A stretch of 63,903 bases of DNA, counting the filler, from Folioceros fuciformis (Eukaryota): the NCBI GenBank assembly GCA_049999805.1. It is 10 parts of 10 records of this genome, joined end to end, with 100 filler letters (N's around TTAATTAATTAA, not from the genome) between each part and the next. Parts side by side here need not be neighbours in the genome. Positions count along the whole stretch, not along the records: positions 37,672 to 43,237 come from JBNGIO010003957.1; 9 more parts are not named here. The stretch is one strand, 5' to 3'. Under the pieces are notes generated by a model. It was not told the origin of the DNA. It did not search any database and saw nothing but the letters and a program-made list of their open reading frames with translations. Within the stretch, counting starts at the first letter, position 1, and each line of letters starts with the position of its first letter. Shown here one piece after another: positions 9,703 to 63,440 of the stretch. Both the position numbers and the translations under genes were made by a program.

Positions 9703-9814
9703 ACTTGCAGGATCACCCTCACAATCGGGTTCCATGCCGTAGCAAGCTCACGATTCGGGTAGCAACAAATTCATGTCTTGATGTTTTGGATACCAGCAGA
9801 CTCACAATTACGTT

Positions 9815-16495: not shown

Positions 16496-17015
16496 CCACG
16501 AATGCCCTATGGTCCCAATATATGTACTGTACAGACACCGGGAATCCTGCCAAGTCCAATGTCCGGAGAGTCGAGCTGACGCTGGACCGGACGCTGGATC
16601 TCCTTCCGTGCTAGGGAAGGCAAGCGTGTTGCAGAGGCAGAGGTAAATGATGCCATCTTGCCTCAGAACTTCAACAGCCCCTGCGCCACGCTACACTTCA
16701 GTGTGCAACAATCGGCATTTACAAACATTCCGATCGGGTACTTGAGTGTGCTGCGAAAGCGGGCAGTCGAGCCGCTCTTTCTAGCGGAGATAATGCACAC
16801 CGCTGCGTGCGTGTATGTGAGCTGTCAAGTGAACGCAATGCGAATGTTTCCATATGAAGCGCGTCATGTGGCAAGCTCTCACAATTCCATAAAACAAGCT
16901 TGTTTCCGACAAGCGNNNNNNNNNNNNNNNNNNNNNNNNNNNNNNNNNNNNNNNNNNNNTTAATTAATTAANNNNNNNNNNNNNNNNNNNNNNNNNNNNN
17001 NNNNNNNNNNNNNNN

Positions 17016-22231: not shown

Positions 22232-22723
22232 TGTTACCCTTACACCTCGTTCCGAATCGGCCGTCCACAATTCAGGCCTCGGTCACTCACGACTGCAGTA
22301 TCCCGTTGTTCGATCGAGATTTCGACACCTCATGGCTAGGATCTATTTAGCCCGCGCCTTTGCCCTCAGCGTCCGTGCTCCGACCCTTGTAATCCAGCGC
22401 CCGGCGTCCGCGACTTTCGCGTCCGGCAGCGCCCCGCGATTTAGCAGCCTAGCTATGTCCGCCGGCCAGGTCCTCATCGGCCGGGTCCGCGCCCATCGGC
22501 TGAGTTTTGCGCCCCGGCTGGGGTTTTGGCTCCCCGTGGGCTACGGCAGCCTGCGGCCTTGAGGGGGCAGAAGCTGATAGGCTAAGGCTATTCCCAGGGC
22601 TATTGAGGGGACAAGCCCAACAATGGTATAGTAGGACGCATAGTAGTACCACAACGTTGAGTTGAGGGAGCCTCAAGTCTGAATTTCTAACTAGGTTTAG
22701 AGGGTTAAGTCGTGGTCATCATA
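22232..22723. repeat. Possible LTR fragment between the Copia leader and Gypsy gag
   Basis: Starts TGTTAC, ends CATCATA, GC-rich non-coding. No TSD found. Confidence 0.3.
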
Positions 22724-25700
22724 CGGGTACCTTTGCTAGATTAAGGACTCTAAGGAGAGGTAGGAAAGAGGATCTATATTCTTACATAGAGAGGTTCTAT
22801 AGCTACCTAGATAGGGTCCCCAGAAGGTCTGGAGAGCCTGGATGGCAGAGTACACTGGGATATTCGGATGAGCAAGCCTTCGATTGGTTTGCTGGTGGCT
22901 TACTTGAGAAGATGGAGACCTACTGTCGAAGAGGTGTGACAACTTTGGAAGGAGCCATCAAAGCTGCTGAAGACTACGAGATGACGAAGATGAACAAGAG
23001 AAGGAGGAGGCAGTGGGAAGCTAAGAGGCATGGGGGAAGGAGACACTCTAGCCCCAATTCTTCATCCAGATGTACGTCTCCTTCTTTGTTAGATGTGGAA
23101 CTTGAGAGCTATGGGTCAGCTAGGTATTCTGACGAGGAGTCGAACTGTGGTTATGGAAGGAGGATCAAGAAGGATCTGGACAGAGTTCGTAGGAGATGTT
23201 AGGAAGAAGCTGAGAGGTCGGCTGAGAAGGACAGGAGAGGAAAGGGATCTTACAGGATTGAGAGAGTTGTCTTACCTACGGGCGGAAGTGTTGCGGAGGA
23301 CAAGATTGAGGCATTGACCAAGCATTTGGCAGAGATGGAGGTGAAGACTATTCGCAACCAAGCACCAAGGAGATCACCATCTCTTGGAAGGCACGGGGTA
23401 TATTGCTCAATTTGTCAACAAGCAGGACATACCAATGGGGAGTGTGCTAGATCACTGAGACATGCTGTCAATCAGGTGGAAGCTTACATGCCAAGTGACT
23501 ATTGGTATGTGGATGATTCTTACCGAGTGCAGGCTGTGACAGCCCCTGGCTTTCCGCAGTCATTGAGGCCATCTTTCCAACCGACAGCACCTCCTGCAAT
23601 GAGGTATGGGAGACCATCTTCACCCGGATCATGGAGGCCTGATCCATCACAGAGACCTGTAACTATTCCTCTAGGAGGATGTTACAATTGTGGGATGACA
23701 GGTCATTATATAATGGATTGTCAAGAACTGTGCCGATAGATTGGTTTTGTACCATTTTGTCAGATTTGTAAGGACCCAGGACATAGAGCAGGAGATCCTA
23801 GGTGTACGGGGATACCAAAGACAGTACCTTCTAGGACATCAGGAGTAAGGATCACCGAGGCAACCACGGAAGGTGCTACTGTCGGGACAGAACCATCTAT
23901 CCCGATGACAAGTGCACCAGTTCTATCTGTAGAGGCTGAGGAGGCGGTCGAGACTGAATTTGAGATGTACTCAGGGATTGTGGAGGAAGGCTACGCCAGT
24001 GAGTATAGTGATGGTGAGGAAATTTCAGTTGCAAGGGTTGTCACCAAGTCAAAAAGGAGAGAGAAGGAGCGGAAAAAGGGATCTAATTGAAGTAGGAAGG
24101 ACCAGAGGAGGAAGGAAAAGGACAGTCCTCCTTGGGTTGCTGAGACAAGGAGGGCAACATTGGCTGAAAAGGAGAAGAAGAAGGATTTTTTTGTCGGACA
24201 AAACGATCTGTCTGTGGGGCAGAAGGATCTGTATACTGGGAAGGAGTCGGTTCTTACAAACAAAAGTGGGCAAAAGTAGGATACTACAAATTGGAAGGAG
24301 GAAGATCCGACTGAAGAGGATTCGGTCATGACAGGAGAGTCATTGTTTCCTCCTGACATTAGTCAGGAAGTGGCTATGATGTTAGAGGAGGAATTGGACA
24401 GGTTGATGAGGAAGGCTAAGAAGGTTTCATTTTCAGAGCCTTTGGTGACAAGCGTGGTGGAGAGTACTCCTCCGATGGGAGAGCAAACGGAAATAGAAGA
24501 TTGCCAGCAAGAAGGAGGAGGGGAGGTAATCATTCCCCAAGAAGTGGAGACAACCCGAGAGGCTTTGGCCATGAAGGTGGCAGGGTTTGCGGAGGCCCTG
24601 TTAGATCAAGAGTTTGTGGCAACTTCTGTCAGTTAGCCCCAAAACTAGGAAGGTGTTGAAGGAGGCCATTCGAGGGATGCCAGAGTCACTACATGGGAAA
24701 GATGTGAGGTATGTAGTGAATGCAGATGTGGAACTTGTGGATTGTGGCGATCCTGAAATTGAGATAGAGATAGTTGGTTGCTTGGTGCCAGATGTGCCAC
24801 TTGACACAGGGTTGGGAGTAAACCTCATGACGGAAGACACATCTTATAAGTTAGGGTTTACAGAGTTCAGTACTATAAGGGTCTACTTGAGAATGGCAGA
24901 TCAGACCAAAAAGAAGCCGTTGCGAGTGTTGAGAAATGTGCCGACGATAATAGGAGGAATTGCTTTCAGTTTAACCTACATTGTCATGAAACCTATTTCA
25001 AACTTGGGATACAAGGTGTTGTTGGGAAGGCCTTGGTTGTATGGGGGAGGTTGCGTGTTTGATTTTGAGAGGAAGGGTGTAACTTTTAAGTCAGGACAGG
25101 GAGGATCTGCCGGAAAGGTGTTTGTGACCTGGAGTAGGATGCCACATGGAGGGGAGACTGATCCCTATTCTCCAGGGTACACGTCTGGAAGCGGGACTTC
25201 ATCAACAAGTGGTGCTGAAGTTTACAGCAAGTTGGGGACATCTGTCCAGATGGTGCTGACAGATGAGGAGGTCTCTTGTTACCATACTCAACAAGAGTCG
25301 GATGAGAGTTTTGAAGAGGATGAGGTACATAGGGAAGGCTCTGCCTTTTGGAAGGGCAAGGCCTATGATTATGACTTTCCTGACGAGGGGTCAGGAGTAA
25401 GTGTAGCGAGTAGTCTAGGAGGGGGGTATGTGGATCCTAACGTGGTGGAGGATCTAGTGTTGGCAGAAGGGAAACATGTTAAGATATCCAAACACTTGTC
25501 AACAAAGGAGAAGGAGGAACTGAAGGCATTGCTCATAGAGTATATAGATGTTTTTGCCTTCAAGGTGACAGGAATCCCTAAGGAGTTGGGAGTTCACCGG
25601 ATAGATCTGAAGGAGGGTAGCACACCTATCCGGGTAAAGCAATATAGGCTCAACCCCAAATACTCCATGCTAGTGAAAGAGCAGCTAGACCTAGAGGCTG

Positions 25701-26945
25701 GGGTGATCTATCCAGTTCTGACAAGTGAGTGGGTGGCACCTATTGTGGTAGTACCTAAGAAACAACCAGGGAAGGTGAGGGTTTGTCAAGATTTTAGGAA
25801 GCTTAATGAAGCCACCAAGAAGGACCATCAACCACTTCCATTCATGGATAGTGTGTGGGATACGGTCCTTGGCCATGAGATGTATAGCTTCTTAGATGGA
25901 TACTCATGGTACAACCAGATTTCACTAAGGCTAGAGGATAGAGACAAGACTACTTTCACGACAGATTGGGGTACCTTTGCTTATGCCAAGTTGCCATTTG
26001 GGCTACGTAATGCCCCATCAACTTTCCAAAGGATAGTGAATACCATTTTCAAGGACTACCTTAGAAAATTTATGGAGGTCTTTTTGGATGACATTTTGTG
26101 TTTTTGGGAGAAGGGCCCTACATGGGGGACATTTGAGGAGCTGTTTGCAGCGGTTTAGGGACACAAGTTTCAAGCTACAACCAGACAAATGTTTCTTTGG
26201 GATGCTAGAGGGTATACTTTTAGCTCATAGGGTTTTAGCTAGGGGATTGCAAGTGGACATGGAGAAGGTCAGGATAATCTCTCAGTTGGAGGCACCTTGA
26301 ACAGTTCGACAAGTGAGAGCTTTTGTGGGGCTGGTTGGCTACTATAGGAGATTCATTAAGAATTTTGCTAAGAAGGCTGCAATCCTAACGCAGCTAACCA
26401 AGAAGGATGAGGAGTTTGTGTGGATAGATGAGAGGGAGGCAGCATTTCAGGAGTTGAAGGGAAACTTGGTGGAAGTCCCTACCTTAAGGCCACCAGATTG
26501 GGAGAAGCCCTTTCATGTCTATGTGGATGTATCAGCATATGCTATTGGAGCTATCTTGAGTCAACTAGATGACAAGAAGAGGGACCTGCCCATCTTCTAC
26601 GCTAGGAGGCAATTGTCAGATGCTAAGAAGAACTACTCCACCACAGAGAGGGAGGCTCTTAGAATTATCTATTCTTGTAAGAAGTTCAGACATTATCTTT
26701 TGGCTTGCAAGGTGGTGTTCCATGTGGACCATTTCGCCCTCAAGTATTTGGTCAATAAGCCAAATCTGTCAAGAAGGATTGCACGTTGGATGCTACTTTT
26801 ACAGGAGTTTGACTTTGAGGTAGAGACAAGGGCTGGGAAGAAACATGTGAATGCAGACGTCATCTCTCACTTGAAAACGGTGGGATCCATCAGGAAGATG
26901 GATGATAAGTTTCCCGACGAAGGGTTAGTAGCAGCTGTCCAGGAG
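22724..26945 (+). mobile_element. Athila-like Ty3/Gypsy gag-protease-RT-RNase H, truncated before integrase
   Basis: CCHC knuckles, VPLDTGLGVNLM, VCQDFRKLNEATKKDHQPLPF, FLDGYSWYNQI, PFGLRNAPSTFQR, FLDD, NYSTTEREAL, RWMLLLQEFD. Confidence 0.93.
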
Positions 26946-27262
26946 TTAGATGCGAGTGAGAGACAGAGGAACGAGATCTATCAGCTCGACCGGACGAGGC
27001 AGGACAAGAGGGCTTACAGACAGAGAGGTCTAATGGTTTTGGAGAGGGACCACCAGATTTTTGTAAATAAAGCGGAAGCTCTCGTGTACACGAAACAAGT
27101 GCACAAGCAGGAATGAATTTAATTAAGACAAAGTATGCTTAAATACAAAAATGTCCGTGTAANNNNNNNNNNNNNNNNNNNNNNNNNNNNNNNNNNNNNN
27201 NNNNNNTTAATTAATTAANNNNNNNNNNNNNNNNNNNNNNNNNNNNNNNNNNNNNNNNNNNN

Positions 27263-31091: not shown

Positions 31092-31191
31092 NNNNNNNNN
31101 NNNNNNNNNNNNNNNNNNNNNNNNNNNNNNNNNNNTTAATTAATTAANNNNNNNNNNNNNNNNNNNNNNNNNNNNNNNNNNNNNNNNNNNN

Positions 31192-34100
31192 AACATAGTG
31201 ATGTTGAATCTCGATGTGCTTAGTACGGGCGTGAAACATAGGGTTGGAGACTAAGGCGATGGGTGACATATTATCACAGTTAATAATCGTAGGTCCTGCT
31301 TGTTGCATACCTAAGTCTTCGCATAACTTCCTTTCCCACTCTGCCTCCTTTGTAGCTTCTATGAGAGCTTTGTACTCCGATTCCGTGGAGGACAAAGATA
31401 TAGAAGCTTGTTTTCTACAAGACCAATTCACAACTGTGGAGCCGGCAAGGAAGCAATAGGCCGAAAGACTCTTTCGAGTATCTGCATCGGAAGCCCAATC
31501 TGCATTGACATAGCAAGTCAATTGTAGACTCCTTTTGCCAATGGGCTTGTAGCAGAGACCATAGTTAGGAGTACCCTTGAGGTACCGCATAATTCTTTAA
31601 GTGCTACCTAGTGATCCCTTCCTGGGTTCTCAGAGAATTGCGCAACTGCATTAACAGTATTAGATATGTCTGGTCTTGTCCAATTGCTTAGAAACATAAG
31701 GGTATCGACCGCCATACGATAAGGCACACTCTCCATTTCCTTTTTCTCTTTGTCAGACTGTGGACAAGAAGACGAGGAGAGCTTAACACCAACAGCACCT
31801 GGGGTGACAGCTGCTCATGAGTTCTCCAAGTTGAACCTCTTGAGCATCCCGGCTACATATCGACCTTGATGAAGGTAGATAGCTCTAGAGGACCTGTCTT
31901 TATGTACGTGCATCCCAAGAATGTATTTAACTTGACCCAAATCTTTCATTTCAAACTCCTTGCTGAGATCAGCCTTGATTTGGTTAACCAGCTCCACATT
32001 ATTACCGAGGATAACTAAGTCATCCATGTATAACGCTATTAAAACAAGTGAGCTGTCCTTTTGCAGCACATACAAGTTAGTATCTGCTTCGCTTTGCACG
32101 AAGCCAATCTTCTTAAGATAAGAGTCAATTCTCTTGTACCACAGTCGAGGACTTTGTTATAGCCCATAAATAGATCGAAGGAGTTTACACACCTTTTGCG
32201 AGAATCTCTTATCCTGATAATCCTCAGGTTGATCCATGTAGATCTCTTCTTCCAAGTGACCATAGAGGAAAGCTGTACAAACGTCCAGCTGATAGATGTC
32301 CAAGTTAAGTTCTGCACACAAAGCAAGGAGCATCCTTATCGAAGTTGCTTTAACGATAGGGGAGTAGACTTGATCGCCTTGATAGTTGACTCCTTCTTTC
32401 TGACTATAGCCCTTGGTGACTAGCCTCGCTTTATAACGTATGCGGGGCTCAACCTCTTGAAACTTTGTTTTGAGTACCCACTTGCACTTGACAGTTGTCC
32501 TTCCTGGGGGTAGATCCATTAACGTCCAAGTGTTATTCTTGACTAAAGAGTTATACTTATCGTCAACAGCCAATTTCCACTTGTTAGCCTCAGGTCTAGC
32601 ATAGGCTTCATGAAGCGTGAGAGGATCTCCCTCTTAAACAGCAGATTTCATAGCAAAAGAATAGGCAGCTGGATCAAGATCTGTATACCCAGCTTGATTA
32701 AACTCCAAGTCAAATGGCTTCTCATGCCAGAGGTGTCTTGGGAGTCGCTGACGCGTAGGGTATCTACGCTCAGGAACAACAACTTTAGGTCTTGGGGGTG
32801 ATGGGGTTGGTAGAGGAGTATCTGGGGCCGCACCAACATGTATGTCCCCAAAATCCAAAGGCATTTGTCCTTGTGCATCATCCATGGGCCGATCATCTTT
32901 CCCCTCTCGAGCAGGACCCGGAGGAACCGGAACTGCTTGAGGTAAAGGAGCCATGGTGGGAACAACACTATCAGGAAAAGACGAAGGGCTTAAATCAAAG
33001 TGAACAGAAAGGCCATCAATAGAGCGGGGAATGGTGGAGATAGAAGCAGGAGCATCATCCTCATCCAAGAGTGGATCGGAGGAGAGGATGCTAGCCTCAT
33101 CAAAAGTGACAGTCCGAGCATAAATAGGAGTCCGAGTAGCCATGTTAAGCAACTTGTATGCCTTGCAATCCTCCCCATAACCCACAAAAACCAACTTCCG
33201 CGCTCGGGGAGAAAGCTTATTGCCGAGTGGGGAGGGAACATAAGCATAAGCAGGAGATCCAAAGATGCGCAAATGGGCGATCAAAGGCTTGTACCCATGC
33301 CAACACTCAAAGGGAGTACGGCCCACCAAGGACTTAGTAAGTAACCTGTTCTTGATGTAGATGGCCGTAGAGACTGCCTCAGCCCAGAAAGACTTAGGCA
33401 AGCAAGACTAGGCTAGCATAGCCCACGCCATGGCCATAAGGTTGCCATTGGCCTTCTCAGCAACACCGTTCTGAGCAGAAGTGTAGGGAACCGTGAATTG
33501 TCGCAAGATCCCTCGCTCCTCACAGTAGGCTTTGAACTTATGGTTGTTGAGTTCTCCAGCATTGTCGGATCTAATGCACCGCAGCTTGCAACCAGTGTGC
33601 AACTCGGCCATAGAAACAAAAGGGGAGAACACAGCAAAGGAGTCACTCTTGAGACGAAGGGGGTACGCAAATGAGTAGCGGGAATAATCGTCCACTATCG
33701 TCATAAAATGGCGTGCTCCGCCTAGAAAAGTAACAGGGAGAGGTCCACACAAGTCTACGTGAATTACCTCCAAAGGTTGAGAAGCTCTATGAGCAGGAAG
33801 ACTAGAGTAGGGAGAGCTCCGCTGCTTGGCGAGCACACACGCTTCACAAAGAGGTGGTGTCTTAGCCAAGGAGGGCAACTTATCTCGATACAAGTCCTGC
33901 TGTGTCATGACAAGGAGCTTGGCATGATTGAGGTGCCCAAGGCGACAGTGCTAGAGGTGAGCATTCCCTGATGGAGGAAGCCCTGGTGGTGTGGCAACCT
34001 TAGAAGATTCTACTACGGTTGGAAGTGAAGGGGTTACAGGGGTGCCTGTGAAAATGTAGAGATCACTCCCGAGCTGCCCTCTGGCTACAGGTTGCCTTGG

Positions 34101-35473
34101 CTGAGAGGAACGATAGAGGAAGCAATCCTCACGACCAAACTCCAGCCGAAAATCTCCATTAACCAAAAGTTGGCGAACGGATATCAAATTCTTAGCCATC
34201 TGTGGGACATGGAGCACGCTGTTTAGCACAAGGGAGGAACCATCCTCCAGTGTGAACGTCACGGAACCAACTCCAGCAATAGCAAGGCCAGAGTCATCGC
34301 CCAACAGCACAAAACGTTGAGTGCCCGTTGTCGCCGTGTACGCTGTAAACATGTGCTTGGAGCTGCAGATATGGGCTGTGGCCGCGGAGTCCAGCAACTT
34401 AGAGGTCCTGAACTCGGAAGCAACCAAGCACACAATTAGGGCAATCGCAGACTTGGACGGGTTCTTGGCCTTGGAGACGACAGCTGTATTGGAAGTCTTG
34501 ATCTCTCGCTTGGCCTCACCGGCTTGCTTCTTCCTGCACTCCCGTTCCCAAGGACCGGGTGATAGACACCAGTTGCACGTCCCTTGACGTTTTGCAGGCT
34601 TAGAGGAAGAAGGGGCAGAAGAAGCAGCCTTTGATGTGCCGGAGTTGATGTTTCGCCAGGGGTTAGGTCCTCTCTTCATTTGTTGATTTTGTGACCGTCC
34701 TCGTGTCACAAACATCACTCGGTCACCACCATGTTTAGAGGTGCCGGAGTTGAAGCGAGATGCCTCCTCCTGAAGGAGTGCGCCAGCCAGCTCGGACACA
34801 GTGCGGGTGGATTGACCTCTAGCCACCACTGCTCGTTGTGAAGTCCGGACCGACTGGTTTTGTGAAGAGACGNNNNNNNNNNTGCTCGTTGTGAAGTCCG
34901 GACCGACTGGTTTTGTGAAGAGACGAACGATTGATAACTAGCCGCAAGGCTAGCAAGAAGCTGGACAGCAGCATCAAATTCAGACATGGTGGTCCCGAGT
35001 GCAGCCAATTGTGCCCAAAGGTACCTAAATCGGCTCACATGATGGGCAATACTATCACCTTGTTGCATCCGAAGGGTGTAAAACTCTTGTCGGACGGTGA
35101 CTAAGGTCATGACATTTGTTGACTGATAGATGTCATTGATCTGCTTCCAGGCCTCTGTTGAAGTAGTCGCACCATCGGTGTGATGCAAGGTGGTTTTGTC
35201 AAGGCCAGAAACCAGCATTTGCATGGCTTGACGATCCAGCTTAAGCTAGGCATCAACCGCCGATTGAGGTGCAGTGGGCTTAGGGGAAACACCCTCCACC
35301 AAAGGAAGAAGATCGCGCGTGTTGAGAGCTGTCTTCATCCTTCGAGACCAAATCTCATATTTGGTCCCGTTAAACCTGTCTATCTCTTTAAAATTAGTAG
35401 AGACGTTCATTACATTGATTACAGGAGCCGGGGTTGGCGGAGGTAGCGGTAGTGTGGGTGTTCCCCCTGACAT
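31192..35473 (-). mobile_element. Copia element B (CNWC lineage), near-complete degenerate gag-pol
   Basis: DRFNGTKYEIWSRR, CNWCLSPGPWERECRKK, LDSAATAHI, IHVDLCGP, RSDNAGE, YKARLVTKGY, YMDD, KHIEIQHHY. Confidence 0.95.
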
Positions 35474-35603
35474 GGTCAAATCCTTAGCTCCACAATTGTG
35501 TAAGCGAGCAGCGTGTTGTGACACAAGGCTCAGAAAACACAAACGTAGTGAGAGCAAAAATTTTTCCAGGAGAGTTCAACACTATCACACTCACACCAAC
35601 CAC

Positions 35604-37020
35604 CTACAACTCATCGATGGGTTCCTGTGCTCCAATGTTATTTTCCGGTACTCTCGCCCTATCAAAGCTTGACTCTATGCACCGAACAGTTTCAGCAACT
35701 TTCACTAAATTAGTGCTGATGTGAGTGATCGACTGCCAAAGATTTTGATAATGGAGAGAGCGTTGCTCAGTAGCAGAAGCTTGGGCCTGGGCTTCATTGT
35801 ACTTGAACTCCTTGTAGGCAGCCTTCAGAGTCTCGTAAGCTGGAGAGGACGATCTTGGTTCCTCCTTGACAGCTAAGAGAGCGGGTGTTGTCGATGTCCC
35901 TAGGTTGAAATCGTGTGTTGGAGGCACACTACACATAGCCAAAACCGTCAGAGTTTAGACAGATGGGCACCAAGATCGCCATTGTTATCTGCTGGAAAAG
36001 AGCCCAAAATAGAATTAGGTGGATTTTGTAAAATAGAGCCAGACACCCCGTTGGAGGTGACAAGAGTCCCGCCCATTCATGGAGGAACCACGCCGTTCCG
36101 ATGAACGGGCATCCCGCAAGCCAGTAGCGACGGTAGCCCGTCACAGGCCCCGTTTTGCGAACGGATGCCCGGTTAGTTAGAGTCGGTGGCTGCACTTCGA
36201 GAGGCACTGCCTCGCGAACGGGCGCCCAACTAATAAGCACCGATTTGCGAGCAGGCGCCCAACTAATGGGCACCGCTTCGCGAGCGGGTGCCCAATTAAT
36301 GGGCACCGATTTGCGAGGGGTCCCACCCCCGCGAGCGGTTGCCCCGATTAAGTTGGGCAGCGTTTCGCTGGGGGTCGCGACCCCTTGTTTGGGCGCGCCT
36401 CCTGTGGCGCGCGCGCCTGCTTCAATCTCACCGATGGAAACCACCTGGGGCTAGGAATTTGGGCCACCATGCGAATCTCTGCTTCTAACAGATGCGGCGC
36501 CTTGATTGGCTGATGAATTTGGGCGCCTCTCTGTTCCAGATTGCTGCCGAGATGGATGAAAATCAGTGACAATCAGATCGTTGTCGCTCTCCCCCCAGGC
36601 GGAATTTCCAGTAGAATTGAGGCCGTCGGATAGATCTTGCTGGAGGGAAGAACTGGATTCTCCATGGCGCCTTGAGGACGTCCTGCAAGGTGAGGAATTG
36701 TGCTGGGAATCAGTGGAAAAACTAGAACGTCTGAATCTTGCTTGCAATATCCTGTTTTGTCGATTGTGATGACTTGGGGATTGAGCGGGTCCAAATTCTC
36801 GACGATTGACGACCGCATCATGCTGAGGAGTCCACCCTTGGTTATCCAATGCTTGGATTAAGGCGTCCAATAAGTTGTCGCCCAAGGATTGAAAGTGGCG
36901 AGGTGCAAATTGCCATCCGAATCCTCGTGAATTCCTTCGTTGAAGCGATCGCCCTAGAGAACGCTCCACATCGTCACCATAGCGCCGAGAGTGAGCAGCG
37001 TTGCGACGATTTCTTACCAT
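35604..37020 (-). pseudogene. Extra ORF upstream of gag in Copia B (~470 codons, disrupted)
   Basis: 36451-37020 and 35929-36444 share a frame across one TAG. Contains 11-aa repeats and shifts into the helical 35604-35942 tail. Confidence 0.55.
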
Positions 37021-37384
37021 GTTCGGGTGTCGAAGAGAGTGTTGCTTGATTAGGAGAGGAGCTTAGAAAGCCAATGTGTAAGAAAGAGAAAGGCAGAATG
37101 CCTTCCCTAACACTCACACCCATGCTTTTAAGCCTATGAGGAGAACCCTATGAGATCTCCTTTTCCTCCTTTTTTTTAGAAGGTAAAAATGATAAAAATA
37201 GAAAAACACAGATTTCTATTTGTATTCATTTCTTAAAAAAAAAAAGATTATAGGACACTAAAACTAATACTATCAATTATAGTATGATTAGATTTAGTGT
37301 ATGGCTTAGGTAAGCCCAACTACACAGATACATGAAGAACGACGACAAATATATTGTCGTGTCTTACAGCGGTGGCCTTATCAT

Positions 37385-37466
37385 TCCAATTTGGTAACGA
37401 GAACGATGTATCTAGCGATTCTATCCAATTTGGTAACGAGAACGATGTATCTAGCGATTCTATCCA
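37385..37466. repeat. 39-bp tandem duplication
   Basis: CAATTTGGTAACGAGAACGATGTATCTAGCGATTCTATC x2. Confidence 0.9.
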
Positions 37467-37672
37467 TAAGCGAGCAGATAGAGCTTCATGCATCCATTGC
37501 TTACTTAGATAGTGATACATGCGTAGTCTAGCCATTGGATTTGGAGACCAACGTAAGAGCCCTATGGCTCTNNNNNNNNNNNNNNNNNNNNNNNNNNNNN
37601 NNNNNNNNNNNNNNNTTAATTAATTAANNNNNNNNNNNNNNNNNNNNNNNNNNNNNNNNNNNNNNNNNNNNG

Positions 37673-37873
37673 TGTTGGTTTAATAACCCCGACGGTTAAA
37701 TATCCCTACTTACTTTTAGGTTATGTTATTTAGGGTTAATAGGGTACTTTTTGTATATAACATTTTTCTGCTCATTATTGAATACACATCGTTTTGTTCT
37801 ATTGCTCTCGCATGCCTCTACATGCTGGCCTTTCTTGCTAGATGCATGAGGTATCTCCGCATGGTATCAGAGC
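37673..37873 (+). repeat. 5' LTR (37673-37861) and tRNA-iMet PBS (37862-37873) of Copia C
   Basis: TGTTGG...CCGCA followed directly by TGGTATCAGAGC. Confidence 0.85.
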
Positions 37874-37907
37874 GCCTTGATGGTGTTTGAATCCTTTGTA
37901 TCTTGCA

Positions 37908-38550
37908 ATGCCACGTGGTCGTGGAGAACGTGTTTCTTCGCGTGGTGAATTTCCTCCAAGGCACCAGCGTGAATCACATATTCCTCCACCCACTCCTAAA
38001 TTGCCATGGACCGATGAGACATTCAATAATTATCGAGTTTCACTACGACAATTTTGGAAGTGGCAATTGCAAGAACAAAGAAGGCTCCGCAACTTGACGC
38101 GGGAGCAAAGTAGGAATAGGCATCAAGAGATTGGGGCTCCCAGGAGCCACTCAAAACCAGTTCCTGAAAATCATAAATTTCGGTCTAATTTGGAGTTTCT
38201 TGATGATGCTATTTCAGAAGATTCTGATTTTGAATATCCTGATTATGAAGATGCTCATTCTGTGGTGGAATTTTATTATAATCGTATTGAGACACGTGTG
38301 GCTCAATTGCGCGCAAAACAGGATTTTTTTTTTAGAGGTTATGCATGAACAAGAGAAACGCCTTCAACATGCACTTTCTTCTTTGAAGGAAGAATACTCT
38401 GGTCATTTGCAACGTATCAGCAATCAATTGCTACTTCTACTTGGAGCTTCTAATTTACCTCCCCTTGAGAAATTGAAGGCGGAGTCACCATTCATTTCAG
38501 GAGAATCTAAATCTTCAGGGCATGATTGCCCACCTATCACGATCTTGTGA
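37908..38550 (+). pseudogene. Extra ORF between PBS and gag in Copia C (~214 codons, one frameshift at T10)
   Basis: ORFs 37887-38348 and 38131-38550 join at the T-run 38324-38333. Basic N-terminus, acidic middle, coiled-coil-like tail. Confidence 0.6.
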
Positions 38551-38902
38551 TTTGTTTCCGCTGCACAAGGAGAGGAGTTGCAATTATGGATTTGGTGCTG
38601 GATTGCAGTATCTGCTCAATTGCTCCAGCCACAGATTGCAGATATGAAGAGACGATTAGGGTTACCTGAGTATGTCACCTGTAGGCTTCCCTTCATGTTC
38701 TGCTGAATCCCAACTGCTTTCCTTCCTTTAGCCCTAGTTTATATTTTTTAGGGCACGTTTCGTATCTTGACAGTTACACACTAAGATTTGAATGGTTACT
38801 ATTCATTTTTTGCATTAGTTACGTCTTCCTTGTTAGTTGGTCTTTGCTTGCTGCCTCCATCTTTTCTATTGTACAGCTGTAGCTACCTGCACACATACAG
38901 TC

Positions 38903-41900
38903 ATGTCAGCCCCTACTTTTACCTCTGATCTTAAGAGTACAGACAGATTTAATGGCACGCGTTTTGATATTTGGAGTGTTAGGATGAAATCCACTTTACT
39001 TGCTCGTGGAGTCTGTGATGTAGTTGATGGGACAAACCTAGATCCCGGCACTCCTTCTAATCCTACAACAGTAGGAGCTATTGTTACTCAAAAACAGAAA
39101 GATGCATGGGATAACCTGAACAGAATTGCTGTAGCCCTCCTAGTCAATGGGCTTGAGTCTGATCTTGTCCCTGAAGTCGAGTTTCTCACCAATGCAAAAG
39201 CAATTTGGGATCAGCTTACAGGAACTTATAAAGTTGAAACAATGATGAGCTTATGCGCAGTAAGGCAGCAATTTTATCTTGCGCATGAAGGAAGGAGATT
39301 CTGTTGCAGCATTCACTAGTCGATTTAGGCACTTGCGTGCTCAAATGGCTGCTCTTGGCACAACTATGCAAGAGGTGGATGCGGTAGCTCAGCTTCTCAC
39401 CAGCGTGCCTCCCAGTTACCAGACATTTGTCACCACGCAAAATGGTCCCATTTGAGCTGCCGGCCAGAGTGTCAAGCTCACATATGTTATTGGGGCTCTA
39501 TATCAAGAGGAAATGAGCTGCCAAATGTCATCAAGGGGACAACACAGCCGTTCTAAAACTGACAAAGTTTTTTCTGCGACAAGAGGAGGTCGATTCAACA
39601 TGAGAGGTAGAGGGAGAGGTCAACCACCTGCTCAGCGCAATGCCACTCAACCTTCTGCATCAAGGAGACAAGGTAACTGCAATTGGTGTGGGACTCCTGG
39701 GCACTGGGCCAGAGAGTGCAGAAAGAAAAAGGCCGGGGAGCCTCAGCGGGCAACACCTCGACCTACAGCTGCACCTGCCACATCACAATCAAAAGAAAAG
39801 GTTTCCGAACCTCAGTCAAGCAAACCAGTTGTGAAAATATTAACACTCTGCCTGAGCACTCAAACGAGTGAGGTATACAGTTGGTACCTTGATAGCGGTG
39901 CCACTGCTCACATATGTCGTGATGAGCTCCAATTCACTAGCTTGACCCTTACCACTATTTCTGAACGAGTGTTCTTAGGTGATGAATCCAGTTCCAGCAG
40001 TCTGCACATACATGGTAAAGGCATCTGTAAGTTCCCACTTCATGATGATACTGTCTTAGTTTTACCAGATGTTCTTTATGTTCCTAAGATGGCTAAAAAT
40101 TTAATGTCACTTAGCAAGATAATGCAGATGAAGGACCTCATACTTACAGTCTCAGAAACCACATGTTGCTTTGCTCGTCGTAGCTCACCTTCTCGCTGTA
40201 TTTTCAAAGCTGTCCTAGATTCAGAATTGTATCGTCTGGGTATCTCTTGTATCCGCCGTGAACAAGTAAATTCAACAGCTGTTGGTCCCTTGACAACAGC
40301 TCAGCAGGCTATACTTTGGCATGCCCGCCTTGGGCATGCAAACCGTTCTAAACTTGTTGACTTATCAAGGCAGGACTGTTACAGGGAGCCTCTTCCTCGC
40401 TGTTTCAAAGATCTGCCCATATGCGAAGTTTGTGCTTTGGCAAAACAGCGGGAGACTCCTTTTCCTACAGTTCCTGCATTTCGATCCACGGCAGTTCTGG
40501 AGTTAGTACATGCTGACATTAGTGGGAGACTTCAAGAACAATCTCTTGGTGGAGCATTATATTATTTTACTCTCACTGATGACTATAGCAGATATACATG
40601 GACCTACCCTATGGAGCATAAGAGTGACACCTTTCAGATATTTCAAGACTGGCTGTTGGTTGTTCAAAGGCAATCTGGTCGCATGCTGAAGATGTTCCGC
40701 ACTGACAACGGAGGGGAATTTACAAGCTCTGCCTTTGAGCATTTCCTGGAAACACAAGGCATTATCCATTAGTTGATAGTTCCATACACGCAGCAGCAGA
40801 ACGGCGTGGCGGAAAGAAAGAACCAGACTCTGATGGGGATGACGCGCTCCATGCTTTTATGGTCTGGACTGCCCAATCCTTTCTGGGCTGAGGCTGTTGT
40901 CACAGCAACCTACATTTTGAACCGCCTTACCTCTCGTTCTNNNNNNNNNNNNNNNNNNNNNNNNNNNNNNNNNNNNNNNNNNNNNNNNNNNNNNNNNNNN
41001 NNNNNNNNNNNNNNNNNNNNNNNNNNNNNNNNNNNNNNNNATGTGCCTGCAGAGAAGAGACGTAAGCTTGACAATCGCTCGAGACAGCTTGTATTTGTAG
41101 GCTACAGTGAAGTGACTAAGGGCTACAAAATTCTTGATATGCACAATATGCAGCCGGTGGTAGCCCGTAGTGTTACCTTTATTGAGCATTTGGTTCCATC
41201 ATCAGCTGATTCTCCTTATTTACCAGGCACTTTGGGGGATTCTACCAGCCAATTGTATTCTGAAAATTCTGGTGAGTATCCAGATGATGTTGACGGTGAA
41301 GCTGATGCTGGTGTCATGTTCCCACCTGCTCCTCCAGCTGATACTCCACTAGATGCAGAGCCTGATGCAGAATCTGCACATGACAATGCTGAAAATTCAG
41401 ATCATGATCTTCCCCACAATCCAGTTAACCCCGTAGAATTAGAACCTGACAGTTCTTCCCAATCTTCTGATTCTTTTGGTGAAGAAGAGACATTACCAGC
41501 ATTGCCAGTTTCAGCTGATGTTACACATGAACCTGTACGTAGGTCTACACGTGCTCATTGCCCTCCCTCTGAATGGCTAGAGCCCCGTTACACATCTATC
41601 GACTTTCGTAAGTCAGTGGGAGTCTGTATCCCATCTGTCCACAATGCCTCTTTGCCCATTATCCCTCCTGAGCCTGTCACTCTCAAAGAAGCATTTTCAG
41701 GTCCCGATAGAGATAAATGGAGGCATGCTGTGGATGATGAATTCAACAGTCTTATGCAAAATGGTACCTGGAAACTTGTTCCTCGTCCTAAGGGGCGCAA
41801 ACCTATAACCTGCAAATGGGTATTCAAGCATAAGTTAGATGCTGATGGTAACATAGCACGTTATAAAGCAAGGCTCTGCGCACGTGGATTCACACAAATA

Positions 41901-43237
41901 CCTGGTCTGGATTTCCAAGAGACATTTTCTCCAGTGGTACGCTCTCAATCAATTCGCCTCATGCTTGCTTTAGCTGCTGAGCGTGACTTAGAAGAAGAAT
42001 TGTATATGGAACAGCCCGAAGGCTATGAAGACCCTGATCATCCAGACTATGTGTGTCAACTTATTAAGTGCATTTACGGCCTTAAACAAAGTGCAGAACG
42101 GTGGAATGCAAGACTGGATACCTGCCTAAAGGGCCTTGGATTTCGACAGAGCCCTGCAGATCCTTCTGTCTACATCTATGATGATGGCACCTCTTATGTT
42201 CTTCCGGCTGTTTACGTTGATGATGCCATATTTGCTGGAAATGATACCCACTTGTTAGCACGAGTTCAAGACATGTTACGAACAGAATTTGAAATGACAG
42301 ATGTAGGGGAGCTGAAATTTTGTCTTGGTATACAAGTATTGAGAGTACGTGCAGAGGGGTTGATCATTATCCATCAGCGTAAATATATTTCAGAAATTCT
42401 CCAACGTTTTAACATGGACAATGCACATCCTGCCAACACACCTTGTGCAAGTGGTGTCAAACTCACCAAGGATGACAGTCCCGTTTCAGCTGCTGACATT
42501 GCTGATATGAAAGATGTCCCATACCGGCACGCAGTCGGCAGCTTATTGTTTGTAAGTAATTGGACTCGGCTAGATATCACATATGCTGTGAACACAGCCT
42601 CTCAATTTCTGGACTGTCCTGGCCGTAATCACTGGACTGCCATCAAACGAGTATTTCGTTATTTGAAGGGGACACATAATTATGGACTATGCTACAAAAG
42701 AACAGGAGAAACACCTACCTTGTCAGCCTTTGCTGATGCTGACTGGGCATCTGATGGGGACACACGCAAGAGCTTGTCTACATATGTCTTCTTCTTATCT
42801 TCTGCAGCCGTTACATGGAGCTGTAAGAAACAAAGCAGCATTGCCCTCTCAAGCACTGAAGCAGAATATAAATGCCTCACCGATGCTGCGAAAGAAGCTG
42901 AATGGGCACGCTCTTTCCTCTCCTCAGTGCACTGTGAGCAGCTACTCCCTACTACACTGCACTGTGATAATCAATCTGCCCTAGCCCTTGTTGATCGTCC
43001 TAGGTTTCACGCTAGAACGAAACATATAGAAATTGCACATCACTACGTTAGGGATGTCAAGGCTAGGGGAATTGTCAGCCCTGTTTATATCCACACTGAC
43101 GGAAATACGGCTGATGTCCTCACTAAACCACTGCCCAAACACAAACATCAGACGCATGTAGAGGGTTTAGGTCTCGTAGATTTCAGCAAGTTTTACTGCC
43201 TGATTGAATGCTTACATGGTGGACAGCCCCACAGAGT
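38903..43237 (+). mobile_element. Copia element C (CNWC lineage) gag-pol, few disablements
   Basis: CNWCGTPGHWARECRKK, WYLDSGATAHI, LWHARLGH, RTDNGGEF, QQNGVAERKN, YVDD, DADWASD, KHIEIAHHYVR. Confidence 0.97.
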
Positions 43238-43337
43238 NNNNNNNNNNNNNNNNNNNNNNNNNNNNNNNNNNNNNNNNNNNNTTAATTAATTAANNNNNNN
43301 NNNNNNNNNNNNNNNNNNNNNNNNNNNNNNNNNNNNN

Positions 43338-48160: not shown

Positions 48161-48260
48161 NNNNNNNNNNNNNNNNNNNNNNNNNNNNNNNNNNNNNNNN
48201 NNNNTTAATTAATTAANNNNNNNNNNNNNNNNNNNNNNNNNNNNNNNNNNNNNNNNNNNN

Positions 48261-56237: not shown

Positions 56238-56509
56238 NNNNNNNNNNNNNNNNNNNNNNNNNNNNNNNNNNNNNNNNNNNNTTAATTAATTAANNNNNNN
56301 NNNNNNNNNNNNNNNNNNNNNNNNNNNNNNNNNNNNNAACCAACTATTTCCTGGTCAATTAACTTAATTAGCACAAAGAAAAATAGGAAAAATGACCAGA
56401 AAATCAAGGAAAATTAGGGAAAATAAGTCGAAAAAGAAAACCAAACCATACCACTATTAACCCTTTTTCAACCAAAACAAACTACTACCCCAAACTTTGG
56501 AGGTTCACA

Positions 56510-57800
56510 ACCTACAATGGCAAAGAATTTAATATCAGTAAGTCAGCTTATGCGTTTATGCTGCTTCGACCTACTGTTCACTTCCAACGGTTGTACCCTT
56601 ACCATTAAGGGCTCACCTACCAGGGTAGTGGCAAAGGGGGTGCGCATTAATGACTTGTACAAACTCCATGTGGTTTGCTGCCGTCCACCTAGTTTGCACC
56701 TGGCACAAGTTGTTCAAGCACAGCTGTGGCACGCCAGGCTTGACCATGTTAATCAACAGAAGCTGGTAAAGATGTCTACTATGGACTGCTACCATGAACC
56801 CTTACCCAAATGCTTCAAAGAACTCCCCATGTGCGATGCATGTGTGGTTGCTAACCAAAAGGAGTTGCCCTTCCCGACTGCTCCTGCTTATCGCACTACG
56901 AATGTCCTAGACCTAGTGCATGCTGACATTTCGGGCAAGATACATGTTCCCTCTCTGGGAGGAGCATTTTATTATCTTACGCTTACCGATGACTATAGTT
57001 GCTATTCCTGGACTTACCCTATGAAGCAAAGTCTGATACTTTCCCCATATTCCAGGAATGGGTGACTATGATTCATCGGCAAACTAGTCGACTCTTGCGC
57101 TGCCTGCGATCTGACAATGGCACTGAGTTTGTTCATGCTCTTTTTGAACAGTTCCTTACAGCACAAGGGATAGTTAGACAGCTCATTGTTCCATGTACCC
57201 GGCAACAAAAAGGGGTAGCAGAACGACGTAATCAGACTCTCCTGGGCATGACTCGTAGCATGCTAGCTTGGTCAGGGTTAAGTAAATCTTACTAGGCGGA
57301 GGTCGTTGTCACTGCTACGTATATTCTTAATCGGCTGATTACTTCTGCAATTGCTGGCAAGACTCCGAATGAGCTCATCTGGGGAAGCAAGCTGAGTATT
57401 CAGCATCTTCGTGTCTTTACTTCCCCTGCTTACGCCTATGTCCCTTCCGAGCTGCGCAAGAAGCTGCATGATCAAGCTAAACCTTTCGTTTTTGTTGGTT
57501 ATGGCGAGGAAGCTAAAGCTTATAAACCTTTTGATCCTCCCTCTCATAAAAATCCATTCTTGCTCGTAGTGTCACGTTCAAGAAACTGAGGCAGCCAACT
57601 AAGCCTCATTTTTTGGATATTGCTCCTTCCTCTTCGACTGACCCTCATAGCTTCCATGCTCCTGTAGAGCCTCCATATGCCCTAGACTCGTATATTCTCT
57701 CAGTTTATCCTTAGGATTCACCAGTTGCAGCTTCAGGGGGTGACCTTGATGAATTTGCCCCTGTTGAAGTTGCCGAGGTTGATTCTGTAGAAGTTGATGC
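56510..57800 (+). mobile_element. Copia protease end and integrase fragment (similar to elements C and D)
   Basis: MAKNLISV, LWHARLDH, VHADISG, RSDNGTEF, VAERRNQTL. Confidence 0.92.
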
Positions 57801-57986
57801 TTTCTATATATGTGATTCCATATATAAGATAAAACAAATTTTAGAGAACTGCAAAGTAAGCATATATAGAATGATAATGAATCATTGCATAATGTTGTTT
57901 TTATAGTCTTAGTTTATTAACGCTATCAGATAAGAACCGAATTAGGTTAACTATAGGTTATTTAAATAACCTCTAACACCCCCTCT
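57801..57986 (-). repeat. PPT (57979-57986) and 3' LTR of Copia D
   Basis: Minus strand AGAGGGGG then TGTTAGAGG and ~180 bp of AT-rich sequence. Confidence 0.75.
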
Positions 57987-58216
57987 GAACCTAGCAAGGT
58001 TAAAAGGAGATTTTCTTAAACCCTAGTTCATCATAAACCCTTCATGATGAAACAAGGTGCAGGAGTTAATGTTGTGCAAGCGGGAAGACACTCAGGCGGC
58101 GTGTCTGTCGATCTAACTTCAGCCAAGAAACATATGATGTCCTGGAGCTCGTTCAAGTCGGAGTTGTGTGCTTTTTCTCTTGTCACCTCGTCACCTTCTC
58201 CTACACGACACCAACG

Positions 58217-58591
58217 ATGGCGCACAAGCGAGGCAGAGGTTTGAGGTGTCAGAACCATCCACAGGAAGAGTCTTCTCAGAAACACAGTAACTCCTTCGTG
58301 CCTAGTGATACACGAGCACAGAAGGAGCCTGCAGATTGGCCTACACAATCAGACAGGAACTTGGTGTGTTGTCTCCTCTAGACAGTAAAAAAACGTGAAG
58401 AGGCCGAGGAAGTGCTCAAGACTGCAAAATGTCGAGTCATGGATCTTCAGGACTGGATAGCCAAGTTTCCGCCAAGAGACCCAACAATGTTTCCACTATT
58501 AGAGTATGAGATAAAACACCTTCTGCAGGAACTGTCAAAGCTTGGATATACTGGCCAAGTTGAAGGTGCCTCTAAAGCTGCCAACACGTAA
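58217..58591 (+). pseudogene. Antisense accessory ORF in the 3' region of Copia D
   Basis: ATG after a pyrimidine-rich leader. ~124 codons with one TAG. Helical KKREEAEEVLKTAKCRV...LEYEIKHLLQELSKLGY. Ends at donor-like GTAAGG. Confidence 0.5.
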
Positions 58592-58751
58592 GGTTTTCGT
58601 CCTCTTGAGAAAGGTAGGTCTTCTTAACCATTGAGCTTACACTGTGGGCAACTCACGATTATATGTAAACAGGTTGCTTCATCCACTGAGTACCCTCGTT
58701 TATGCTTTTGGTAGGATTCTTGGCTCGAGGATCTGTCACACATGAGCCTTC

Positions 58752-61700: not shown

Positions 61701-63062
61701 AAAGCAGTAAGTAGTGCCTTGTTCTTGGACTTTTGAATAGGTACTAATTGATACAAATCATTGACGAGAACAGCTTTACCAACATAACTTCCTGGATCTG
61801 ACAAAGAGTAAATATAGCATGTTTGTTTTTCAAACCTAAAGCCATACTTGTGACTTTCTGTAATAGCTCTAACGGACAGCAAATTCTTACCCATTTCAGG
61901 AACATAAAGGACATCCTGAAGATGCAATATGGAGCCATCAAGCAAAGGTATGTCTGCTTCTTCAATTCCTTTTACCTCTACACCATGAGAGTCTCCTACG
62001 AAAATTGATAGTGATGTTTTCTATTCTATAAAGGTGGAGAACATATGCTGATTATTGCAGACATGTGCAGTAGCTCTTAAGTCGATATACCAACTTCGAG
62101 TAGTCTCAACGGTAGACGTCAAGCAAACTGTAAGAACTGTACTGCTACTTCGAGCAGATTGATGTCGACTAGGTAACATTCGTTGTTCCTTAGTAGAAAC
62201 ATGAGTCTCGGATCTTGCATCCTTCTTAGACTCACTAGCCTTCTTTTTCCTGCAGTCTCGTTCCCAATGCCCAGGGATTTGGCACCAATTACAGCTACCT
62301 TGTCGCTTAGGAGTGGGTGAAGAGGAAGAGGAAGGAGCAGAATGGACAGATAAGTTTTGTCCCTTTTTGTACTTATTATCCTTCCCTTTCCAAAGTCCTT
62401 TTCCCTTTGCAGCAAATAGGACTTTCTCACCACGAAGTCTTGATCCTGGATGAGCTCGCTNNNNNNNNNNNNNNNNNNNNNNNNNNNNNNNNNNNNNNNN
62501 NNNNNNNNNNNNNNNNNNNNNNNNNNNNNNNNNNNNNNNNNNNNNNNNNNNNNNNNNNNNCGTTATCTTGGTCCCCAGCGCAGCAAGTTGTGCTCGCAGG
62601 TGCCTCAACTTAGTGATATGTGCTCCAACTGGTTCTCCCTCCTTCAACCTGAGACTATGGAAGTCATTCATGACATGAATCCAGGTACAGATATTCTGAA
62701 CCTGATATGTCTTAGTAAGTTGATTCCAGACTACTTCAGCTGAGTCTAGAAAATCAACTTCAGTAATGGTCGTTTCGTCCAGGCCAGACAGCGAAATGGC
62801 AAAGGCAATTTTATCGCCATTCTTCCATTTTGCTTTTTCATCTGCTGACGGTTGCACTGTTGTTGTGACAGGGACCAAGAATGGATTGGGAATGGATCCA
62901 TCCACATATTCCCAAACGTCTCTTGCGTCTAAAGTTTGCCTTCATTCGGGCTTTCCAACTCTCAAAACGAAGAGGCTTTCCATCAAATCGATCCTTTTCC
63001 TTGAATTCTCCAGAGTAGAGTGATCCTAGTGACGTTGACTGTGAGGCCACTCCTAAAGACAT
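58752..63062 (-). mobile_element. Copia element D (CNWC lineage) degenerate gag-pol
   Basis: CNWCQIPGHWERDCRKK, MWHARLGH, TDNGGEF, QMDVCTAFLHG, YIDD, NWTRPDI, RNase H. Confidence 0.95.
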
Positions 63063-63440
63063 AGTAACAGTATTGTGTGTCGTTAATTGTGCAGGAAGTG
63101 ATGGAAGAAGAATAAAGCCACGAAAAGGGAGAGCTCTCTGAGTCACTATCTAAATCGAACCAAGACATGCAAAGGAGCTCATCAAAAAACGAAATGACAC
63201 TAAACCAGACACGAACGGGTAAGTGTTGTTTTAAATAAATACTAAGTAAAGTCTCGTGAACCTAAAACGAGAAACCCCTAACTGAAAACTGACACCGGTT
63301 CATATCCATGTCCCAGGATGTCCAGTCTATTCAGTTGGAAAAATCTAGATTCCTGAGAATGAAACTGACACACTGGTGAAGACCAACAATGTGCCACCTA
63401 TCCAAAACACAGGAATGCCTAGCGGCTCTCACACACCCTT

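Follow-up and report, generated by a model that had tools for sequence, protein, structure and literature searches.

Do certain Ty1/copia retrotransposons of Folioceros fuciformis carry an additional sense open reading frame (ORF) between the primer binding site and gag, and if so, is it typical of their lineage? The question is raised by three elements, designated B, C and D, in a stretch of 63,903 nucleotides of assembly GCA_049999805.1, the whole of which is referred to as the window. The window is made up of 10 short unplaced scaffolds of 3.3-10.1 kb each, chained by nine N44-TTAATTAATTAA-N44 linkers, and elements adjacent in it are therefore not genomic neighbours. B, C and D are located on separate short scaffolds, each of which terminates inside its element.

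Extra ORFs are common in plant long terminal repeat (LTR) retrotransposons, and the described cases are mostly from Ty3/gypsy elements (Ogre, Tat, Athila and Retrosat2) or are located 3′ of pol (SIRE). A copia 5′ ORF conserved in position and plan, if real, would mean that an initial ORF upstream of gag has evolved on more than one occasion. Made up of a basic tail, an acidic patch and a single helix, it would also provide a small and simple system in which to study the action of such proteins. The reading preferred here, though only tentatively, is that B, C and D form one deep Ty1/copia clade with a lineage-typical, fast-evolving 5′ extra ORF that is broken in every copy in the window. With three decayed copies, all on short scaffolds, as its basis, the case is a lead, not a result.

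A sense frame ahead of gag in element C

Element C begins with the end of its putative 5′ LTR, followed directly by the primer binding site, TGGTATCAGAGC, which we take to be complementary to the 3′ terminus of a complete initiator tRNA-Met. The REXdb text agrees with a tRNA-Met assignment for such a site (Neumann et al. 2019, PMC6317226). The leader, the region between the primer site and gag, contains a sense frame that was expected to begin just after the primer site and to end approximately 350 bp before gag. Both expectations proved correct, with the ATG 34 nt past the exact primer site and a gap of 352 nt between the end of the frame and the gag ATG.

However, the single ORF of 214 codons described in the original prediction does not exist, even though its start and end were correctly placed. 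The 643 nt from 37908 to 38550 are covered by two frames, the first of which ends after 146 codons. The second, in the +1 frame, overlaps it at a run of ten T residues (T10), and the two can be joined only by skipping one base. Read across the break, with an X at the break, the sequence has 213 residues (P0001). The product predicted from the first part has a basic N-terminus, followed by an acidic patch and the beginning of a helix.

The possibility that the C frame entered the leader as a separate, nested insertion was considered and rejected, as no direct or inverted terminal repeats flank it.

Leader frames of elements B and D

Disrupted sense frames upstream of gag had also been predicted in B (35604-37020) and D (63441-63903). 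Both were found, but no primer site was detected for B, and the openness of the D frame is within chance.

In B, a frame of 376 codons extends on the minus strand from 37062 to 35929 and is interrupted by a single in-frame TAG at 36451-36453 (Table 1). It is followed by a further ATG ORF in a different frame, and the gag N-terminus beyond that is alike in B and C. Upstream of B, a primer site and an LTR end were looked for and none were found, and the DNA upstream of B gag is taken to be the B leader from adjacency only. This leader includes approximately 2 breaks in 1456 nt, a density like that of the decayed B gag-pol (approximately 6 pieces over 3.6 kb). Upstream of the first B ORF there is a perfect 39-nt tandem duplication (37385-37462), and a 10-N gap in B gag is flanked by two identical 43-nt copies (34830-34925) that are probably an assembly artefact.

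The D leader is incomplete, and its primer site would fall beyond the window end. The D scaffold also contains a second, inverted copia fragment (56427-57065, plus strand), which is 51-53% identical to the protease-integrase part of C. Measured to gag from the primer site, scaffold end or window end, the leaders of B, C and D are approximately 0.8 to 1.6 kb long.

A search for an LTR pair in the window, where the scaffolds end inside B, C and D, found none. In a fourth copia element, A, a 53-codon acidic open frame was observed on the minus strand (6573-6734), beginning near the scaffold end and in the gag frame, with two stops between. The scaffold end may have truncated a leader frame of which this is the tail.

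Table 1. Positions of the leader and gag features of elements A to D, with the scaffolds and linkers of the window
Feature	Position	Strand	Description
Scaffold with element C	37672-43237	+	C on plus strand
C 5′ LTR (putative), last 190 nt	37672-37861	+	Ends in CA just before primer site; rest beyond scaffold start
C primer binding site	37862-37873	+	TGGTATCAGAGC; exact 12-mer; one other exact match, at 53463 (element E)
C leader frame, part 1	37908-38348	+	ATG ORF, 146 codons plus TGA (38346-38348)
C T10 run	38324-38333	+	Break; leader frame shifts from frame 0 to +1
C leader frame, part 2	~38335-38550	+	+1 frame, 71 codons plus TGA; heptad helix at start
C spacer, leader frame to gag	38551-38902	+	352 nt; donor-like GT motif near start; pyrimidine-rich tract at end
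C gag-pol	38903-43235	+	gag, CCHC knuckle, protease, integrase, reverse transcriptase (Pfam); cut by scaffold end
Scaffold with element B	31192-37571	-	B on minus strand
B leader frame, part 1	36451-37020	-	ATG ORF, 189 codons, Arg/Ser-rich, isoelectric point 11.4
B same frame after TAG	35929-36450	-	173 codons; includes 33-nt tandem repeats at 36156-36344
B leader frame, part 3	35604-35936	-	Different frame; ATG ORF, 110 codons, one long helix; open frame spans 35954-35604
B spacer	35474-35603	-	Donor-like GT motif near start
B gag start codon	35471-35473	-	130 nt past end of 110-codon ORF
Scaffold with element D	56338-63903	-	D on minus strand
D leader frame	63441-63902	-	One frame, two in-frame stops; 5′ side cut by window end
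D spacer	63063-63440	-	Donor-like GT motif near start
D gag start codon	63060-63062	-	378 nt past leader frame end
A CNWC knuckle	5643-5684	-	Fourth copia element; only ~280 nt of leader on scaffold
Linkers, nine	6745-6844, 10141-10240, 16916-17015, 27163-27262, 31092-31191, 37572-37671, 43238-43337, 48161-48260, 56238-56337

Frame length and codon usage

For openness, each leader was compared with its own dinucleotide-preserving shuffles. In C the longest open sense frame has 155 codons, a length reached in only 4 of 1000 shuffles, and in B it has 203 codons (38 of 1000). For a control copia element of the window, E, which has an exact primer site match at 53463, the longest open sense frame was reached in 879 of 1000. 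On the antisense strands of the same leaders the longest open frame is at most 105 codons.

A second test tolerated breaks by chaining abutting or overlapping open frames, with 300 shuffles. With one break the C chain extends over 667 nt (1 of 300 shuffles) and with two over 823 nt (0 of 300). The corresponding B chains are 1131 nt and 1456 nt long, and neither length was reached in any shuffle (0/300 each). Nothing comparable to B and C was seen in the chains of the E leader or on the antisense strands. The sense frames in C and B thus exceed chance and that of D does not, and the B figure is helped by repeats.

Codon usage was scored with a frame-specific model trained on 5992 codons of the Pfam-supported retroelement frames of the window, stop codons excluded. 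Part 1 of the C frame scored 0.226 per codon, while 768 chance frames from shuffled C leaders had a 99th percentile of 0.153 and a maximum of 0.238. Part 2 scored 0.132 (95th percentile 0.095). The two pieces of the D frame scored 0.099 and 0.153 (95th percentile 0.072, 99th percentile 0.130), and the 110-codon ORF of B scored 0.101, at approximately the 99th percentile (0.105). The repeat part of the B frame was within chance at 0.015. The gag pieces of C, B and D, which were themselves in the training set, scored 0.113, 0.023 and 0.118, and for 46 open frames antisense to coding regions the mean was -0.029, with no score above 0.147. The tested frames had been chosen for length, and the codon scores are indications, not proofs. 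By these scores C resembles coding sequence, as do D and the last piece of B, though less strongly.

A common order of basic start, acidic patch and helix

The original prediction described all three frames as running from an Arg/Ser-rich start to a coiled-coil-like region near the C-terminus without obvious sequence identity, and on crude tests (charge, heptad scores and AlphaFold2) this arrangement was borne out in each. The order common to B, C and D is a basic Arg/Ser-rich start, an acidic patch and an amphipathic heptad helix. The isoelectric point of the start is 9.0 for part 1 of C and 10.2 for the first piece of D, and the 189-codon ORF of B is the Arg-rich extreme (11.4). The net charge of the acidic patch is -9 in C (30-residue window), and -4 in B and -5 in D (20-residue windows). 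The last part of each frame is proline-free, with hydrophobic residues at heptad spacing.

Heptad spacing was measured with a crude score, the best 28-residue window, and compared with shuffles of the whole sequence. The last piece of B scored 0.95 (0 of 500 shuffles) and that of D 0.85 (4 of 500). In C, part 2 scored 0.70 (19 of 500), and the region just before the break scored 0.72 (28 of 500). Heptad scores of the N-terminal parts were not significant against shuffles, and the maximum among the 46 antisense chance frames was 0.78. Single-sequence AlphaFold2 predicted one helix (residues 32-94) for the 110-residue B ORF, with predicted local distance difference test (pLDDT) values of 86-97 in blocks. 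For the 146 residues of C it predicted a disordered stretch of 35 residues followed by helices at 36-74, 94-107 and 116-145 (helix pLDDT 60-75; overall mean 58).

A rule of basic, then acidic, then a heptad score of 0.70 or more was written after the data had been seen. It is satisfied by DNA shuffles of C in 3/400, of B in 17/400 and of D in 1/400 cases, and by residue shuffles in 12/400, 35/400 and 8/400, respectively. In the window, 5 of the 81 open frames of 110 codons or more also satisfy it, the C frame itself among them. Because the rule is post hoc, these figures are taken as moderate support for the architecture described in the original prediction.

Relationship of the elements

The assignment of this group to Ty1/copia was upheld, as integrase precedes reverse transcriptase (RT) in C, where the order of Pfam families is Retrotran_gag_2, zf-CCHC, Pol_BBD, gag_pre-integrs, rve, SH3_retrovirus and RVT_2, and B and D have the same set. 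Divergence in gag-pol is deep. B and D share 32-36% identity with C in the gag N-terminus, 37-41% over the knuckle, protease and integrase, and 36-60% over RT and RNase H. The CNWC knuckle reported for all three was confirmed, and its longer form, C-N-W-C..CRKK, is also present in A, with Pro for the His in B.

The RT tree had 67 rows: 5 elements of the window, 17 database proteins with names and the first 45 of 102 without. The other 57 unnamed rows were left out, as were A and a further element, G, because their matches fell short of 230 residues. In this tree B, C and D form a clade with the unnamed proteins P0002 and P0003 (ultrafast bootstrap 99; Shimodaira-Hasegawa-like approximate likelihood ratio test 97), apart from the window copia elements E and F, the angiosperm copia group and the animal sequences. 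The nearest protein to C pol is 51% identical, among 755 matches. Osser and Bryco elements have half-tRNA primer sites according to the REXdb text (PMC6317226), whereas the C site corresponds to a complete tRNA-Met. A metagenome search with the alignment of the A, B, C and D knuckle-protease region gave 206 pattern matches and no relative.

Comparison with known extra ORFs

Most extra ORFs of plant LTR retrotransposons are found downstream of pol, ahead of the 3′ LTR (Vicient and Casacuberta 2020, PMC7264820). A sense ORF in the 5′ region is carried by Tat lineage IV (Ogre) elements, where it encodes a plant mobile domain and a C-terminal coiled coil (Ustyantsev et al. 2015, PMC4408406), and an Ogre family of Medicago is a further case (PMC2533021). 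The Ogre/Tat ORFs resemble the B, C and D frames in lying in sense between the 5′ LTR and gag and in being poorly conserved relative to pol (PMC4408406). Their C-terminal coiled coil may have a counterpart here, where crude heptad scores lie above most shuffles and AlphaFold2 gives long helices. However, they belong to Ty3/gypsy elements with RT before integrase, whereas integrase comes first in B, C and D. Their ORFs have several hundred codons and include a plant mobile domain, whereas the C frames have 146 to 213 codons, and neither this domain nor any other Pfam family was found in the B, C and D frames at E<=0.01.

ORF0 of the rice elements Retrosat2, RIRE3 and RIRE8 is conserved in presence, with identities of 7.6-90% (Gao et al. 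2012, PMC3485330). Like the frames described here, Retrosat2 ORF0 is additional to gag-pol, very divergent in sequence and without a counterpart in other organisms (PMC3485330). It differs in belonging to a Ty3/gypsy element with LTRs longer than 3 kb, and in having intact copies with a ratio of non-synonymous to synonymous substitutions, Ka/Ks (PMC3485330), whereas the copies here are decayed.

The category that fits the position is the REXdb class eORF-5′F, forward extra ORFs in the 5′ part, which includes Ty1/copia (Neumann et al. 2019, PMC6317226). In REXdb, 582 copia elements are counted whose extra ORFs have 250 codons or more, sorted into 45 groups that do not resemble one another, and only 21.4% of extra ORFs have any known domain (PMC6317226). 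The frames here are similar in that eORF proteins are heterogeneous and lack a common domain (PMC6317226). Among copia elements, the main text singles out only the 3′ forward ORF of SIRE (PMC6317226). Beyond the REXdb class, literature searches gave no description of a copia clade typified by a sense ORF between primer site and gag. Because 5′ sense extra ORFs are already tabulated in REXdb for copia (PMC6317226), the position is unusual rather than unprecedented. The class is restricted to ORFs of at least 250 codons outside tandem repeats, and all three frames fall outside it. C has 146 codons, or 213 across the break, B has 189 and 110 codons together with a 376-codon frame containing a stop and tandem repeats, and D has at most 73 codons.

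The env-like ORF of SIRE (Maximus) is also an extra sense ORF of heterogeneous sequence in a copia element (PMC6317226). However, it lies 3′ of pol, and the 3′ part of B, C and D is cut by scaffold ends or undetermined. LINE-1 ORF1p, encoded by an initial ORF that precedes the enzymatic one, has a coiled coil, binds nucleic acid and contains RRM and CTD domains. It serves as a working analogy for function only. In structure the resemblance is limited to the helix, the element class is different, and no RRM or other domain was found by Pfam in the B, C and D frames.

Element C in sequencing-run contigs

Evidence from sequencing runs consisted of contigs only, from one study, and the sample of the best-matching DNA run is possibly the source of the assembly itself and not independent support. 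Two runs, X1 and X2, contain 76-78% of the words of the stretch. C gag-pol is broken in the window by a frame change near 39278-39456 and an in-frame TAG at 40770-40772, and also contains a 100-N gap (40941-41040). At both breaks, all X1 and X2 contigs compared differ from the window. The window breaks therefore appear to reflect assembly errors or variation among copies or individuals, and the family C gag-pol is probably open at both sites. In the leader frame of C, 4 supported single-letter differences were seen, 2 synonymous and 2 non-synonymous, which are too few to mean anything. In one contig the frame is kept by the combination of a 1-nt and a 2-nt insertion, separated by four places, near 37953-37957.

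A possible RNA run, X4, yielded two pieces of approximately 20 nt only. In a further run, X3, C>T (254 places) and G>A (216 places) far outnumber all other changes across 37672-40940. This is a pattern as from a bisulfite-type library, from which the methylation state of C could be obtained.

Interpretation of the leader frames

In the preferred reading, the leaders of the B, C and D clade carry, or carried at insertion, a sense extra ORF (ORF0) ahead of gag, whose sequence would be unconserved and whose plan would be kept: a disordered start that is basic and rich in Arg and Ser, then an acidic patch, and at the C-terminal end an amphipathic heptad helix. By analogy with the 5′ extra ORFs of Ogre and Tat or, more loosely, with L1 ORF1p, the product may be a helper or regulator of the element RNA, binding nucleic acid through the basic tail and self-associating through the helix. 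Gag would be reached behind ORF0 by splicing, shunting or reinitiation. The T10 run in C, the stop and frame change in B and the two stops in D would then be breaks of ORF0 in the individual copies. Protein would be made from the frames, and all three would derive from one ancestral ORF. In favour of this reading are where the frames lie and how they are oriented, how open they are in C and B, the resemblance of C to coding sequence in codon usage, the propensity to form helices and the grouping of the three elements in one clade, together with a break density in the B leader like that of its gag-pol and the lack of terminal repeats around the C frame.

Several results weigh against this. The longest open sense frame of D, 73 codons, was reached in 676 of 1000 shuffles, and its chains in 219 of 300 with one break and in 176 of 300 with two (459 nt). 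The 189-codon ORF of B has a codon score of 0.030, within chance. The openness of the B frame may be due to its G+C-rich 33-nt repeats, and the REXdb protocol excludes frames in tandem repeats (PMC6317226). The expected lack of obvious identity among the three frames was confirmed, as the best protein match between the B, C and D leaders in any frame has an E of 0.41 and DNA matches are of 10-14 nt. Because no similarity between leaders is detectable, common descent of the frames is unproven. In C, several ATGs are located upstream of 37908 in the likely transcript.

Homologue searches were likewise negative. None of 186 candidates for the C read-through, which covered lengths of 117-373 residues only, was accepted at E<=0.01, phmmer with the 146-aa C protein gave 0 matches among 1,835,955,588 representatives, and none of 57 candidates for the 189-aa B protein passed. 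Pfam gave nothing for the leader frames at E<=0.01 and only sub-threshold helical families at E<=10. Since these searches gave no homologues of the C and B frames, a captured conserved host gene is ruled out, and the outcome fits the small share of extra ORFs with a known domain in REXdb (PMC6317226). In the ESM Atlas there was no usable match for the 146-aa C protein, and the best scores for the 110-aa B protein (0.79 and 0.77) are leads at most. An origin as a diverged gag or other transposable element protein was rejected, as tblastn of the leader frames against the window returned self-matches only. Rfam gave only a sub-threshold U6atac match on 35400-39000 (16 bits, against a gathering score of 33).

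The run contigs add to the weight on this side. A 569-nt contig of X1 and X2 has 0 differences from the window over 37832-38400, the T10 run included, and the T10 run and split frame are therefore real in the X1 and X2 reads. An element with an open gag-pol thus seems to carry a split leader frame, and the persistence of this break speaks against the full-length product being needed, except where the split can be bypassed. Over 38184-38524 (341 nt), a contig of lower depth differs by 40 letters and 19 gap letters and is preceded by a 73-nt skip, indicating that a diverged leader paralogue exists that does not conserve the frame there.

Many of these points would be expected if the leaders were simply long and non-coding, with roles in packaging, dimerisation or regulatory RNA or with expanded repeats, and the frames were by-products of composition, repeats and chance, read into a plan after the fact. 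This is the main rival reading, rated only a little less probable than the preferred one. It accommodates the chance-level frame of D, the codon usage of the 189-codon B ORF and the repeats that hold the B frame open, as well as the missing homologues, the dissimilar leaders, the C frame split in reads with gag-pol open, the gap-rich paralogue and the choice of the architecture rule after the data had been seen. In large elements, REXdb also reports non-coding regions that have expanded and contain tandem repeats (PMC6317226). It does not readily account for the open frame and one-break chain of C (4/1000 and 1/300 shuffles), the B chains (0/300), the limit of 105 codons on the antisense strands or a C codon score above the 99th percentile of chance frames. 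Nor would it predict that the last piece of B is a confident 63-residue helix from a single sequence, or that the heptad signal falls at the same relative place in all three elements.

If the frames are coding, each family may instead have gained its own, by capture of unrelated DNA or by de novo birth, and there would be no shared ancestral accessory gene. We consider this unlikely. The frames lack similarity while gag-pol is still 32-60% identical, the 45 copia eORF groups are dissimilar and REXdb suggested independent acquisition (PMC6317226), and Retrosat2 ORF0 was argued to have arisen late, within the grasses (Gao et al. 2012, PMC3485330). However, the same position, orientation and basic-acidic-helix order recur in three members of one supported clade, and C and D have gag spacers of similar length. 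Even the gag N-terminus retains only 32-36% identity, and alignment could be expected to fail for a protein under weaker constraint.

It is improbable, though it would make the split in C a feature rather than a defect, that C produces both a 146-residue and an approximately 213-residue protein through polymerase or ribosome slippage at the T10 run, and that the frame is a true third gene with its plan, but not its sequence, under selection. The only reason to propose slippage is that the split persists in reads with an open gag-pol. If true, the frame would be a copia counterpart of the first ORFs of long interspersed nuclear elements (LINEs) and of Ogre elements.

Least credible of all is an upstream exon or N-terminal extension of gag, with the spacer of 130 to 380 nt spliced out, or a regulatory upstream ORF controlling gag translation. 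Donor-like GT motifs do occur beyond the frame stop, soon after it in B and D and at a distance of 119 nt in C. In C and D the gag ATG is preceded by pyrimidine-rich tracts, and the 17 ATGs in the C leader of approximately 1 kb make plain scanning to gag unlikely. However, such donor-like and pyrimidine motifs are common by chance, the C frame ends in a stop well before any candidate donor, and frames of 146 to 189 codons greatly exceed the usual size of regulatory upstream ORFs. Judging from the same motifs, an intron in the leader between frame and gag is possible.

Other features of the window

Fragments of copia or gypsy elements are present on nearly every scaffold (Pfam on 57 frames). 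At 22666-27116, on the plus strand of its own scaffold, there is a Ty3/gypsy element in which Pfam identifies a gag knuckle, RVT_1 and RT-RNase H. The N44-TTAATTAATTAA-N44 linkers carry stop codons in all six frames. An array of 27-nt tandem repeats with at least nine units is located at 9778-10101.

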